A DNA stretch of 64,000 nt from Myxococcota bacterium (GTDB lineage: Bacteria; Myxococcota_A; Polyangia; Polyangiales; Sandaracinaceae), in the NCBI GenBank assembly GCA_036149055.1, contig JAYZQJ010000191.1, positions 1-64,000 on the forward strand. The letters are read 5' to 3'. The position numbers and the translations under genes were made by a program. The notes under the pieces are model-generated. The model worked only from the letters and a program-made list of their open reading frames with translations. It had not been told where the DNA came from and searched no databases. This document shows positions 15,422-31,392 of the stretch, piece after piece (the stretch's first letter is position 1; each line of letters starts with the position of its first letter).

Positions 15422-17935
15422 GTGACGAGCAGTATCTCCGGTCTCTACCGGCTCACCCTCGAGGAGCGTCGCGAGCGCATCCGGCGGGCCACGGGCCTCG
15501 ACGCCGACGCGCTCGGTCGGCTCGAGCCCGACGACGGGCTCTCCGGTGCCCAGGCCGATCGCATGGTCGAGAACGCCCTCGGGGTGTTCGGTCTGCCCTT
15601 CGGCGTCTGCGTCAACATGCAGATCGACGGCCGCGACGTGCTCGCGCCGATGGTGGTCGAGGAGCCGAGCGTCATCGCCGCGTGCTCCTACGCCGCCAAG
15701 CTCCTCCGGGCCGGCGGCGGCGTCGAGGCGGAGTGCAGCGAGCCGCGCGTCATCGGGCAGCTCCAGCTCATGGAGGTCGCGGACCCGAAGGCGGCCACCG
15801 AGGCGATCCTCGGCGCCGAGGAGGAGCTGCTCGCGCTCGCCAGCGCCGGGCACCCGCGCCTCGCCAAGGCCGGCGGCGGCGCCCGGGCGATCCGGGTCCG
15901 CGAGCTGCCGCGCATCGAGGCGGACGATCCCTGCGGCGACATGCTCGTCGTGCACCTCTCGGTCGACGTGCGCGACGCGATGGGCGCCAACGCGGTGAAC
16001 TCGATGTGCGAGCGGATCGCGCCCCGGGTGGCCGAGCTCAGCGGCGGCCGGGTCGCGCTGCGCATCCTCTCGAACCTCACCGACGAGCGCACCGTCACGG
16101 TGGTGGGCCGGGTCCCGTTCTCGCTGCTCGACGGCAAGGGCACGGCCAACGGCGAGGAGCTCGCCAAGCGCATCGAGGAGGCCAGCGTCTTCGCCGAGCG
16201 CGACCCCTACCGCGCCTGCACTCACAACAAGGGCATCATGAACGGCGTCGACGCGGCGCTGATCGCCCTCGGCCAGGACTGGCGCGCGGTCGAGGCCGGC
16301 GCGCACGCCTACGCCGCCAAGGACGGCCGCTACACCGCGATGGCGCGCTGGCGGGTCGAGGACGGCCACCTCGTGGGCCGCATGACCATCCCGCTCGCGG
16401 TCGGCACCGTCGGGGGCGTGGCCAAGTCGCACCCGGTCGTCGCCGTGGCCCGCGACATCGCGCAGGCGAGCTGCGCCGAGGACGTGGCCAAGCTCTGCGC
16501 CGCGGTCGGCCTCGCCCAGAACCTGGGCGCGCTCCGGGCGCTCGCCGCCGAGGGCATCCAGCGCGGGCACATGCGCCTGCACGCCCGCAACGTCGCGATC
16601 GAGGCGGGCGCCGCCGAGCACGAGGTGCTCGAGGTGGCCAAGCGCATCGCGGACGCCGGTCAGGTCAACGCGCGGCACGCCGCCGCGGTCATTCGCGAGA
16701 TCCGCGGCGCGGGGGCGGCCGAGCCGGCCCCGATCGCGATCGCCGCCCGGGCGCCGAGGAAGCGCCCCCCCACCCCGGCGACGCCGCCGATCGAGACGAT
16801 CGAGGAGGACGAGATGAGCGAGCTGCGACCCATCGAGCACGAGCTCGGAGGCACGATCCTGGTCACCGGCGCGGCCGGACACCTCGGCGCCAACCTGGTG
16901 CACCGGCTCCTCGAAGAGGAGGGCGTGCGGGTTCGCGTGCTGCTCCGCGAGGGCTCGAACAACGCGGCGATGGACGGCCTCCCGGTCGAGCGCGTGTACG
17001 GCGATCTCCGCGATCGCGACGCGCTCGGGCCGGCGGTCGAGGGCTGCCGCTACGTCTTCCACGCGGCCGCGCAGCTCTCCACCGTGGAGCCGACCCCCGA
17101 GATCCGCCGCGAGGTGTGGGAGAGCAACGTGCTCGGCACCCGCAACGTGCTCGCCGCCGCCCGCGAGGCGAACGTCGAGCGCGTCGTCGTGACCGGCAGC
17201 TTCAGCGCGACCGGCTACGACCTCGACGACCCGAGCGTGGCCGGCGACGAGTCGATGCCGTTCTGGCCCTTCGACGACTCGCTCCCCTACGTGCACAGCA
17301 AGGTGCTCACCGAGCACGAGACGCTGAAGGCCTGCGTCGAGGGCCTCGACGCGGTCATCGTGACGAGCTGCGCGTTGCTCGGCCCGCACGACCACAAGCC
17401 GTCGCGCATGGGCCAGACGCTCATGGACTTCGCGAACGGCAAGATGCCCGCCTACATCCCGGGCGGCTTCTCGTTCGTCGCCGCGCGCGACATCGTCGAG
17501 GGTCACATCCGCGGCCTCCAGCGCGGCGCGACCGGCCAGAAGTACATCATCGCCACCCAGTACGTGGAGGTGGACGAGCTGATGGGCATCTTCGAGGAGG
17601 TCAGCGGTCACCCGCGGCCGAAGCTCCGCCTGCCGGTCGGCGTGATGGCCCCGGTGGCCGAGGTCTCGAGCTTCGTGCTCGGCAACTTCTTCCCGAAGAA
17701 GCCGCAGCGCCTCACCCCCGCCGCGGTGAAGATCCTCAACCAGCGTCGCCGCGCCAGCTTCGAGCGGGCCCGCCGCGAGCTCGGCTACGAGCCGACGAGC
17801 ATCCGCCAGGCCGTGCACGAGGCCTACGCCGACTTCGCGCGCCGCGGGCTCGTCCCCGCCCGCGAGGGCACCACCGAGGCGCCGGTCACCGAGCGCAGCG
17901 AAGAGAGCCGCGCCCGCGCGGCCACCGGGAGCTGA
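15422..17935 (+). CDS. mvaA: Class II HMG-CoA reductase fused to an extended SDR (HpnA/3beta-hydroxysteroid dehydrogenase-like)
   Basis: HMGR motifs MVENALG, EEPSVIAA, DAMGANAVN, THNKGIMNG, GTVGG, GIQRGHMRLH; linker; SDR motifs VTGAAGHLG and YVHSK; no intervening stop; GAGGAGG RBS before the GTG. Confidence 0.88.
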   Translation: MTSSISGLYRLTLEERRERIRRATGLDADALGRLEPDDGLSGAQADRMVENALGVFGLPFGVCVNMQIDGRDVLAPMVVEEPSVIAACSYAAKLLRAGGGVEAECSEPRVIGQLQLMEVADPKAATEAILGAEEELLALASAGHPRLAKAGGGARAIRVRELPRIEADDPCGDMLVVHLSVDVRDAMGANAVNSMCERIAPRVAELSGGRVALRILSNLTDERTVTVVGRVPFSLLDGKGTANGEELAKRIEEASVFAERDPYRACTHNKGIMNGVDAALIALGQDWRAVEAGAHAYAAKDGRYTAMARWRVEDGHLVGRMTIPLAVGTVGGVAKSHPVVAVARDIAQASCAEDVAKLCAAVGLAQNLGALRALAAEGIQRGHMRLHARNVAIEAGAAEHEVLEVAKRIADAGQVNARHAAAVIREIRGAGAAEPAPIAIAARAPRKRPPTPATPPIETIEEDEMSELRPIEHELGGTILVTGAAGHLGANLVHRLLEEEGVRVRVLLREGSNNAAMDGLPVERVYGDLRDRDALGPAVEGCRYVFHAAAQLSTVEPTPEIRREVWESNVLGTRNVLAAAREANVERVVVTGSFSATGYDLDDPSVAGDESMPFWPFDDSLPYVHSKVLTEHETLKACVEGLDAVIVTSCALLGPHDHKPSRMGQTLMDFANGKMPAYIPGGFSFVAARDIVEGHIRGLQRGATGQKYIIATQYVEVDELMGIFEEVSGHPRPKLRLPVGVMAPVAEVSSFVLGNFFPKKPQRLTPAAVKILNQRRRASFERARRELGYEPTSIRQAVHEAYADFARRGLVPAREGTTEAPVTERSEESRARAATGS

Positions 17936-17938
17936 GCC

Positions 17939-29791: not shown

Positions 29792-31392
29792 TCGAGACGT
29801 TCGACTACGTCGTGGTCGGCGGGGGCTCCGCCGGCTGCATCGTCGCGGCCGAGCTGAGCGAGGATCCGCGCGTCCGGGTGCTGCTCCTCGAGCGCGGGGA
29901 CGACGCGCAGGAGCACCCCGAGACGCTCCGCGCCGACGGCTACAAGGACGCGTTCGCGAACGACGCGCTCGTGCTCGAGCGCTTCAGCGTGCACGCCGAT
30001 CGCTGGGGTGACCGCCGGCTCTTCATGGGCTCGGGGCACGGCCTCGGCGGCAGCGGCAACATTAACGGCATGGTCTACACCCGCGGCGCAAAGGTCGACT
30101 ACGACGCCTTCCCCGAGGGCTGGCGCTGGGCCGACGTGGTGCCCGACTTCGAGCGCATCGAGGCGCAGCTCCGCCCGCGCCCCCGCGCGGCGACGGCCTT
30201 CACCGAGGTCTGCCTCGACGCGGCCGAGGAGGCGGGCTTCGCGCGCTCGAAGGACCTGAACGACGGCGACCTCGGCGGGGTGCTCGGCTACGAGCACATG
30301 AACTACGAGGGTGACGACCGGCGCAGCAGCTACGTCGCCTTCCTCCTGCCCGCGCTCGACCGCGGCAACCTCGTGGTCCGCACCAACGCGAAGGTCGAGC
30401 GCCTCACCGTCGACGAGCGGGGCGTCACCGGCGTGCGCTACGCCTGGGACGGCGGCGACCACGAGGCGCGGGCGGTCCGCGAGGTGGCGATGTGCGCCGG
30501 CGCCCTCGAGACGCCGCGCCTGCTGATGCTCTCGGGCATCGGGCCGAGCGGCGCGCTCCGGCACGTGGGCCTGCCCGCGGTGCACGAGGTGCCCGGGGTG
30601 GGCGAGAACCTCCACGACCACCCGAACGTGAGCCTCTTCTTCCGCGGTCAGCGCGAGGTCGACTGCAACTACCCGCAGCTCTACGGCTTCCACCGCGCGA
30701 ACGAGGCGACCGACCTGCCCGAGGGCGCGAGCGACACCTGCTACGTCTTCTACCCGGCCCGCAGCTCGCTCAAGGAAGCGATGATGCGCATGCTGCCGAC
30801 GCTGGTGCTGCCGGAGCCGCTCTACGATCTGCCCGCGATGCCCAAGCTGGTGCGCGGCGGCGTGCGCCTCGCCTTCGGGCCGCGCGCGATGCGAGAGGCG
30901 GTCAAGCGCGTCTACGGCATCGTCGTCATCCTCGGCAAGCCCAAGAGCCGCGGCCGGCTCCGGCTCACCGCCTCGAGCCCGAGCGCCCCGGCGGCGATCG
31001 ACCCGGGCTACTTCGCCGACCCCGAGGACATGGAGACGATGATCCGCGGCGTCGAGCGCGCCCGCCGCATCGCCCGCGCGCAGCCGCTCCGGTCGTGGGG
31101 CAACACGGAGCTCTTCCCCGGCCTGCTCGGGCGCTCGCGCGACGCGATCGAGGGCTGGATCCGGCAGAACGTGATGACCACGTATCACTACGCCGGCACC
31201 TGCGCGATGGGCGACAACGGCGCGAGCGTGTGCGATCCGCGCCTCCGGGTGCGGGGCGTGCGCGGCCTCCGGATCGCCGACGCCTCGGCCATCCCGTTCA
31301 CGCCGGTCTCGGCCCTCAACGCCCCCTCCATGCTGGTCGGCCACCGCGCCGCCCGCTTCATGCGCGAAGAGTCCCCAAGCGTGGACGCCTGA
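29788..31392 (+). CDS. GMC (choline dehydrogenase-like) oxidoreductase
   Basis: VVGGGSAG, GLGGSGNINGMVY, VGENLHDH, YHYAGTC, RIADAS; ATGA overlap with the ALDH gene. Confidence 0.92.
   Translation: MIETFDYVVVGGGSAGCIVAAELSEDPRVRVLLLERGDDAQEHPETLRADGYKDAFANDALVLERFSVHADRWGDRRLFMGSGHGLGGSGNINGMVYTRGAKVDYDAFPEGWRWADVVPDFERIEAQLRPRPRAATAFTEVCLDAAEEAGFARSKDLNDGDLGGVLGYEHMNYEGDDRRSSYVAFLLPALDRGNLVVRTNAKVERLTVDERGVTGVRYAWDGGDHEARAVREVAMCAGALETPRLLMLSGIGPSGALRHVGLPAVHEVPGVGENLHDHPNVSLFFRGQREVDCNYPQLYGFHRANEATDLPEGASDTCYVFYPARSSLKEAMMRMLPTLVLPEPLYDLPAMPKLVRGGVRLAFGPRAMREAVKRVYGIVVILGKPKSRGRLRLTASSPSAPAAIDPGYFADPEDMETMIRGVERARRIARAQPLRSWGNTELFPGLLGRSRDAIEGWIRQNVMTTYHYAGTCAMGDNGASVCDPRLRVRGVRGLRIADASAIPFTPVSALNAPSMLVGHRAARFMREESPSVDA

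Follow-up and report, generated by a model that had tools for sequence, protein, structure and literature searches.

Bacterial and eukaryotic sterol pathways are most unlike in the removal of the C-4 methyl groups, a step that features in debates about how eukaryotic sterols arose and about 4-methylsterane biomarkers. In the eukaryotic ERG25/ERG26/ERG27 complex, ERG25 alone performs the three oxidations, with cytochrome b5 as its partner. The closest described bacterial systems are SdmAB and SdmABC, which contain the Rieske protein SdmA (PMC10202945), and the sterol cluster of S. amylolyticus, a cholesterol producer that has SdmAB and a single such cluster, and whose geranylgeranyl reductase (GGR), Bsr, reduces C-24 (Lee and Welander 2025, PMC12004948). 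Homologues of ERG25-27 have been tabulated for myxobacteria (Hoshino and Gaucher 2021, PMC8237579), and further background is found in PMC13277303, PMC10152446 and PMC11528044. On distribution alone, Desmond and Gribaldo (2009, PMC2817430) put forward a protein annotated as an aldehyde dehydrogenase (ALDH) as the C-3 ketoreductase, and a test of this "ERG27-analog" was called for by Wei et al. (PMC4919349). In the papers searched, bacterial ERG25-like genes and the ERG27-analog are used in arguments on sterol origins with no functional test found. Here we describe a window of 64,000 nucleotides from a marine myxobacterium of the Sandaracinaceae (contig JAYZQJ010000191.1 of assembly GCA_036149055.1, positions 1 to 64,000), which carries an eight-gene sterol operon on its + strand.

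The operon is this bacterium's version of the described cluster, in which SdmA is missing and a three-gene tail, encoding a di-iron hydroxylase, an ALDH and a GMC oxidoreductase, likely takes its role. It resembles the S. amylolyticus cluster in having Bsr beside a squalene epoxidase (SE)::oxidosqualene cyclase (OSC) fusion, a CYP51::ferredoxin fusion and isoprenoid genes, all in a single cluster. The published order in S. amylolyticus (Bsr, SQMO=OSC, ERG24, -, CYP51) is also the order in the relatives G003 and G019. In contrast, the window is without SdmA, a clustered ERG24 and ERG2, and it adds the hydroxylase, ALDH and GMC; neither an ERG25 nor an ERG27-analog is entered for S. amylolyticus in Table S3 of PMC8237579. 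The same table gives a single accession for SE and OSC, implying an SE::OSC fusion.

The first-pass annotation of the window allowed that the cluster might already have been characterized. This holds by half, as the S. amylolyticus cluster is published and the copy of a 91%-identical relative has been tabulated (PMC12004948, PMC8237579). In the UBA10372 row of that table, HBQ15216 is entered as ERG25 and HBQ15214 as ERG27-analog. The hydroxylase, CYP51 and ALDH of the window share 90% clusters with HBQ15216 (version HBQ15216.1), HBQ15215 and HBQ15214, respectively, and the ALDH is 91% identical to HBQ15214.1. The accessible text of PMC8237579 reads the ALDH as a 3-ketoreductase and contains a test of neither enzyme; its table has no entry for the adjacent GMC (HBQ15213), and the term GMC is absent from its supplement. 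The accessible parts of PMC8237579 and PMC2817430 do not mention a within-family exchange with SdmA. The literature searched, which stops short of subscription journals and bioRxiv supplements, held no mention of the GMC, of the SdmA exchange or of an assay of these proteins. What is new is a testable reassignment of the ALDH and a previously unreported GMC partner; the operon is real and conserved, and its core is known.

We lean slightly toward a relay in which the hydroxylase, the GMC and the ALDH would oxidize a C-4 methyl group to the acid in place of SdmA, with decarboxylation by SdmB. Judged by characterized relatives, squalene synthase (SQS), epoxidase and OSC would lead to lanosterol, CYP51::ferredoxin would remove the C-14 methyl group, and Bsr would reduce C-24, with C-14 reduction falling to an unlinked enzyme encoded on contig C133. 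The hydroxylase would convert the C-4 methyl group to CH2OH, the GMC would oxidize CH2OH to CHO, and the ALDH would oxidize CHO to COOH. SdmB, or an ERG26-like enzyme in relatives, would then decarboxylate the product and restore the 3-hydroxyl group. For the source genome (G000; 9.9 Mb, 96% complete), either SdmB accepts the relay product, or an ERG26-like gene such as that of G001 has remained unassembled, or the acid accumulates. The first-pass annotation had recognized a sterol operon and singled out its alcohol and aldehyde oxidases as significant, correctly in both respects. It had also suggested a carboxylated product; the distribution data make the acid look like a passing intermediate of C-4 demethylation, and an acidic end product is the less likely alternative.

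As in the SdmAB and SdmABC systems (PMC10202945), the window has an SdmB-like SDR with an intact active site, and the same overall chemistry is predicted; the difference is that SdmA was not found and that three unrelated enzymes would share the oxidation. With the eukaryotic complex the operon shares a di-iron PF04116 oxygenase and, in relatives, an NSDHL-like neighbor. It differs in adding a GMC and an ALDH to an oxygenase that in eukaryotes acts alone, in the ferredoxin reductase supplied by relatives, and in that no close ERG26-like gene was found in the source genome. SdmA was sought there by protein search, by its family model (best score 64 bits, cut-off 600) and by tblastn, each time with a negative result, so that the SdmA-SdmB pairing of other Sandaracinaceae clusters is represented by the SdmB-like protein alone. 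SdmA was likewise not found in G001, which is 100% complete. Many relatives have a Rieske SdmA-like gene between SdmB and Bsr, where the window has a 3-nt gap.

The exchange of SdmA for the tail was followed through the family. The SdmA search covered 30 of the 32 family genomes, leaving out G025 and G026, which have no OSC, and at least 64% identity was taken to define an orthologue. A full OSC match is present in 29 of the 32 genomes, including the source genome, and SdmA orthologues occur in 13 of these 29. Among the 16 that are missing SdmA, 15 carry ALDH and GMC together, as compared with one of the 13 that have it; a further SdmA-bearing genome, the unpublished G023, has the ALDH alone, and no other row draws on that genome. 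The hydroxylase is found in 16/16 SdmA-less genomes versus 5/13 with SdmA. Fisher's test on the 29 genomes gives p = 3e-6, which we set aside because kin are not independent. On a FastTree core phylogeny of 28 genomes, some nodes of which are weak, SdmA and the ALDH-GMC pair each change seven times, and genera g3, g6 and g7 contain opposite states. The pair itself falls in two distant clades inside the family. Hydroxylase, ALDH and GMC are neighbors in 14 of the 16 pair-bearing genomes, and in genera g1 and g8 the trio forms part of the biosynthetic operon, where it lies around CYP51 with 4-nt overlaps.

In G006, G015, G059, G182, G197 and G356 the trio adjoins a 3beta-HSD with human NSDHL as its best solved match, and in G059, G182 and G197 a ferredoxin reductase also lies beside it, once fused to the hydroxylase. 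The fused form (L134:4695-6620) joins a reductase with FAD, NAD and 2Fe-2S domains to the hydroxylase; the two are separate adjacent genes in family f9. In G001, G004 and G356 the NSDHL-like gene is followed by a conserved SDR of 303-307 residues (63-79% alike; L197:7361-9284, L199:7188-9071 and L140:10792-12743), a candidate 3-ketosterol reductase.

The catalytic motifs of the tail enzymes are intact. The hydroxylase has His boxes at residues 116-120, 129-133, 184-188 and 208-212, as in the ERG25/SMO type of di-iron PF04116 protein. Its predicted model (pLDDT 88.6) has Scs7p as the best fold match, which is weak, with none at E<=0.001. A sequence search of the PDB gave no match, the ESM Atlas returned generic family names only, and the homology search had no eukaryotic sequence among the matches listed. 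Its assignment to ERG25 in preference to ERG3 or CH25H is tentative and draws on the published tree that includes HBQ15216 (PMC8237579). The GMC usually lies directly downstream of the ALDH, and its nearest solved enzymes act on primary alcohols or fatty acids. It was also considered as a cholesterol oxidase and rejected (NF058674, 19.6 bits against a cut-off of 850).

The catalytic Asn147, Glu247 and Cys281 of the ALDH are kept in all 31 bacterial members aligned, and the equivalent Asn, Cys and Glu are also kept in eukaryotic Msc7-type proteins. With 25 other representatives and three other ALDHs of the source genome included, the ALDHs of the module and the eukaryotic Msc7-type proteins form one clade with a support of 1.0 (FastTree); of ten clade members looked up, seven were named as eukaryotic and three were unnamed. 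ERG27 has an SDR fold and reduces a ketone, and this protein has, at the sequence level, an ALDH fold with Cys, Glu and Asn. Under the relay, the ERG27-analog, of the Msc7 family, would be a 4-formylsterol dehydrogenase rather than a 3-ketoreductase. We take yeast P38694 to be Msc7 and Arabidopsis Q0WSF1 to be ALDH22A1. In C. glabrata, MSC7 is one of 35 genes listed for an erg1 mutant and is induced 1.7-fold (PMC5928633), which gives weak support to a sterol link of Msc7.

Outside the family, 401 genomes of the phylum were sampled: 34 have the GMC, 49 have OSC, 14 have an SdmA orthologue and 36 have a close hydroxylase homologue (E<1e-60). The GMC is present in 30/36 genomes with a close hydroxylase homologue versus 0/20 with weaker matches, and 32 of the 34 GMC-bearing genomes have SdmA or a close hydroxylase homologue. 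Of the 49 genomes with OSC, 22 lack SdmA and the GMC alike. Among 17 GMC loci retrieved outside the family, SdmA, ALDH and GMC stand in a row in three (G261, G306 and G321, of another family), a hydroxylase and an NSDHL-like gene are close in four, and two lie by CYP51. The genomes with the SdmA-ALDH-GMC order also carry an SdmB-like gene. An ALDH behind SdmA is chemically apt, because SdmA alone, from E. salina or Calothrix, yields the 4-methylaldehyde (PMC10202945); according to that paper, E. salina has no ERG25/SMO homologues. Among 39 metagenome loci, the ALDH is directly upstream of the GMC in 14, and apart from these and a further eight the loci are cut short or distant. Loci of family f9 (L137, L141) have a BphC-type dioxygenase, a sulfotransferase, SDRs, and ferredoxin or CYP51 beside the ALDH and GMC, also in a genome without OSC, and are possibly a sterol scavenging island; for suspected CPI1/EBP genes at f9 loci, Pfam gave no such name.

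A broader and more tentative reading, somewhat less likely than not, is that the three-enzyme relay is a further C-4 route that has swapped repeatedly with SdmA inside a single bacterial family, that GMC and ALDH finish the job of SdmA elsewhere, and that the eukaryote-wide Msc7 ALDH is a 4-formylsterol dehydrogenase inherited from the module. If true, this would assign a role to the Msc7-type ALDH that fungi, algae and protists carry, and the identity of the plant 3-ketoreductase would again be in question. The candidates are directly testable in the existing E. coli lanosterol system, because all lie in one unit with no confounding SdmA.

Several observations weigh against the relay. The evidence for it consists of gene content, intact catalytic motifs, the absence of SdmA from the assembly and the distribution pattern. 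SdmAB(C) demethylate in E. coli without added ALDH or GMC (PMC10202945), and the stereochemistry differs, ERG25 acting on the 4-alpha and SdmA on the 4-beta methyl group (PMC6385002). The family genomes are kin and mostly incomplete metagenome-assembled genomes (81-100% complete). Within the family, SdmA and the pair are both missing from G030 and both present in G018, and a more distant Rieske paralogue (37-47%), found in five genomes without SdmA, might substitute for it. The pair is present with no close NSDHL-like gene in G000, G013, G024 and G029, and the NSDHL-like gene also scores 277 bits to OleD. The mutual exclusion fails outside the family, where 7/14 SdmA genomes have the GMC. Because 14 of the 34 GMC-bearing genomes of the phylum have no OSC match (11 of the 14 belong to family f9), the module also serves organisms that do not make sterols. 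In eight of the 39 metagenome loci, a GMC of 54-55% identity has none of the partners nearby.

Four other explanations compete with the relay. The acid formed by the trio may be kept, the pathway then ending in a 4-carboxysterol or in an acid at C-26 of the side chain, in line with the first-pass annotation. A di-iron hydroxylase with a GMC and an ALDH is the layout of terminal alkane oxidation by AlkB/AlkJ/AlkH, genus g8 retains the trio in its operon though its SdmB has decayed, and the source genome is without a close NSDHL-like gene. We regard a kept acid as unlikely, however, since all five genomes with an eroded SdmB carry an NSDHL-like gene, SdmB is intact in the source genome although SdmA is gone, and a side-chain role would leave both the SdmA exchange and the SdmA-ALDH-GMC operon unexplained. 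It is quite unlikely that the module is catabolic or protective, acting on prey sterols or clearing stalled oxidized intermediates, with the SdmA-less lineages making 4,4-dimethyl sterols. Such a role would suit the 11 of 22 GMC-bearing f9 genomes that have no OSC, the ring-cleavage-type dioxygenase, sulfotransferase and TetR-sized divergent genes of f9 loci, and the presence of Alcanivorax, Zavarzinia and Oleomonas in the published ERG25 tree (PMC8237579). It does not suit the position of the g1 and g8 trio inside a biosynthetic operon or the intact SdmB of most SdmA-less genomes, and C-4 demethylation of scavenged sterols would in any case be the same chemistry.

In the published reading, the hydroxylase resembles ERG25 in catalyzing each of the three oxidations, and the missing 3-ketoreductase is the ALDH-family protein. 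This was proposed from the phyletic pattern (PMC2817430) and adopted in PMC8237579, where synteny with ERG25/26 is noted, and genomes with an eroded SdmB do need some 3-ketoreductase. We consider it very unlikely, because the Asn/Glu/Cys set for aldehyde oxidation is kept in bacteria and eukaryotes alike. ALDH chemistry passes through a thioester, which makes the enzyme unfit for ketone reduction. The ALDH is moreover placed downstream of SdmA in genomes with an SdmB-like gene of their own, the SDR after the NSDHL-like gene in G001, G004 and G356 is a more plausible ketoreductase, and the GMC is left unexplained. Least probable of all is that the hydroxylase is an ERG3-like C-5 desaturase, with ALDH and GMC acting on an unrelated lipid. 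PF04116 does include ERG3 and is versatile, with 12 matches in the source genome, and in g8 the hydroxylase gene follows ERG2; but no isomerase that would provide a Delta7 substrate was found in g1, the closed SdmA-bearing genomes G003 and G019 are without this hydroxylase, and the orthologue is included in the ERG25 tree of PMC8237579.

The arrangement of the operon (Table 1) was as first described: coordinates and open reading frame (ORF) calls confirm eight co-directional genes separated by 44 nt or less or overlapping, with intergenic distances of 3, -1, 44, -4, 7, 14 and -4 nt. Each domain listed in the first-pass annotation is matched by Pfam or NCBIfam, and so are its four fusions, HMGR::SDR, epoxidase::OSC, epoxidase::cyclase-like stretch::SQS and CYP51::ferredoxin. 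The fusions are not assembly artifacts, since in other loci of the family each junction likewise lies within one ORF (22, 24, 24 and 13 family loci in all, respectively). The GC content of the operon (68-75%) is similar to that of the remaining window.

Table 1. Features of the sterol operon, with positions in the window
Feature	Position	Strand	Support or remark
HMG-CoA reductase class II (aa 13-388) :: SdmB-like SDR (aa 478-810)	15422..17935	+	PF00368 328 bits; NF052578 best NCBIfam match; predicted C-4 decarboxylase/3-ketoreductase
Shine-Dalgarno-like site and in-frame ATG (16814)	16800..16816	+	Putative internal start, free 373-aa SdmB
GGR-family protein, likely Bsr (sterol C-24 reductase)	17939..19060	+	TIGR02032 157 bits
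SE-like domain :: OSC, predicted lanosterol type	19060..22455	+	TIGR01787 461 bits, above cut-off
SE :: QW remnant (cyclase-derived, no catalytic motif) :: SQS	22500..25820	+	PF00494 146 bits; human SQLE E 1e-22
Membrane di-iron oxygenase PF04116 ("ERG25" of Hoshino and Gaucher), predicted C-4 methyl hydroxylase	25817..26524	+	His boxes
CYP51 (C-14 demethylase) :: ferredoxin	26532..28202	+	6MCW (M. capsulatus CYP51fx) E 3e-160, both domains covered
ALDH, Msc7-type clade ("ERG27-analog"), predicted 4-formylsterol dehydrogenase	28217..29791	+	Asn147, Glu247, Cys281
GMC oxidoreductase, alcohol-oxidase type, predicted 4-hydroxymethylsterol oxidase	29788..31392	+	His467/Asn511 pair

In one seawater metatranscriptome, contig depth was 18-26 over positions 15617-31467, as compared with 5.5-8.7 in flanking contigs. 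This is no proof of co-transcription, because the data are contigs and possibly DNA, and because the upstream gene was deeper in two other runs. A scan for promoters and terminators was uninformative (no promoters; four terminator-like sites versus 2.6 expected).

The operon core is family-wide in the Sandaracinaceae and largely published already; neither the fusions nor the core pathway are novel in themselves. Within the reach of the contigs, loci of 27 of 28 relatives (G023 left out) repeat the order HMGR::SDR, GGR, SE::OSC, SE::QW::SQS, and the clusters of relatives often add CYP51::ferredoxin, ERG24, ERG2, FPPS and IDI. Like these clusters, the window has Bsr, SE::OSC, SQS and CYP51::ferredoxin together. 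The P450-ferredoxin fusion is the same as M. capsulatus CYP51fx, with no substantive difference seen, and a fused CYP51 is listed in Sandaracinus (PMC7947880). No paper was found that combines these operon features. The words fused and fusion are not used for these genes in the accessible text of PMC12004948, PMC4919349 and PMC8237579, where HMGR::SdmB and SE::SQS may appear in figures.

The GGR is 74% identical to the gene in the same position in G003 and G019, keeps the catalytic Cys and the YxWxFP motif, and thus has the family, motifs and sterol-cluster position of a Bsr. The OSC (E 1e-126 to human lanosterol synthase) retains the equivalents of H232, V453 and D455; with a DCTAE motif, Val at 453 and His at 232, it is of the lanosterol-synthase type at the sequence level. 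The epoxidase of SE::OSC is the more diverged of the two copies in the operon. That it is a dead enzyme was considered and rejected: its DG motif is absent, but since the sole epoxidases of Polyangium and others are equally without it, this is no proof of inactivity, and further changes in this epoxidase in g1 and g8 are a hint of inactivity at most. The middle part of gene 4 is a cyclase remnant, as its family profile matches the operon's own OSC (E 3e-22), which suggests that gene 4 arose when a duplicate of SE::OSC lost the greater part of its cyclase and became fused to SQS.

The SDR domain of HMGR::SDR has SdmB NF052578 as its best NCBIfam match, at 304-307 bits; this is under the cut-off of 600 of a model built on methanotroph proteins, and the SDR occupies the slot of the SdmA-adjacent gene in relatives. 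Its TGxxGxxG, Ser and YxxxK are intact. A Shine-Dalgarno-like site and ATG precede the SDR domain in 20/22 fused HMGR::SDR ORFs, whereas the equivalent is found at 0/24, 1/24 and 0/13 of the other fusion junctions and at 10/390 control internal ATGs. Because the site is conserved here and rare in the controls, the gene likely yields two predicted products, the fusion of about 837 residues and a free SdmB of 373 residues. SdmB is eroded, through loss of YxxxK or of large segments, in five of 27 aligned genomes, all of them without SdmA and with a close NSDHL-like gene. In Polyangium clusters (L051, L054, L055, L059 and L069) an SdmB-like SDR (43-45%) precedes SE::OSC, and the 22-kb loci contain neither SdmA nor CYP51. 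A further myxobacterial cluster (L072) has HMGR, SQS, SdmB-like, Bsr and SE::OSC, with no SdmA within the locus.

The first-pass annotation had argued for a non-canonical product from missing ERG24-, EBP- and DHCR7-type membrane enzymes. None is in the operon, but for ERG24 the argument fails, because contig C133 encodes an ERG4/ERG24-family protein with a Delta14-sterol reductase as its best solved match (388 bits), the sole PF01222 gene of the source genome. The missing Delta8-Delta7 isomerase does stand, with no ERG2 or EBP match in this genome; ERG2 was also unmatched in G001, and the same search matched three of four relatives. The full cholesterol route through isomerase, C-5 desaturase and C-7 reductase was not found in the 96% complete assembly. 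Given the unlinked C-14 reductase and the negative isomerase searches, the pathway is predicted to end at a Delta8 sterol, for example zymostenol, and not at cholesterol. Contig C231 (L196:5650-6882) encodes a 410-aa PF04116 protein, 71% identical to the CYP51-adjacent gene of genus g7 and a possible C-5 desaturase. No close NSDHL-like gene was found in the source genome, where synteny fits gene loss as well as non-assembly. The first-pass annotation had suggested that the operon couples precursor supply to tailoring; mevalonate supply does not depend on it, given a separate FPPS-kinases-decarboxylase-HMGR operon on C227. DXR was not found in this genome, nor clearly HMG-CoA synthase (weak PF01154 matches only).

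The surroundings of the operon are less conserved. A histidine kinase gene follows after an 18-nt gap and was rejected as a member of the operon, being found only in G000 and G001; it is the MASE11 hybrid kinase of a kinase and S41 peptidase pair at 31411-34548 (gaps of 18 and 3 nt). A receiver-EAL gene at 13870-15156 diverges from the operon, and among the loci compared this gene and the hybrid kinase recur in G001 only. Two large polyketide synthase genes at 6-8196, with KR/DH, KS and tandem FabA-like domains, resemble the end of a polyunsaturated fatty acid synthase cluster. They are followed at 8174-11844 by two adjacent paralogues with repeats of PF11617, a myxobacterial putative metal-binding motif. 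At 57500-62000 the GC content drops to roughly 65% and the AT skew is strong, possibly marking foreign DNA.

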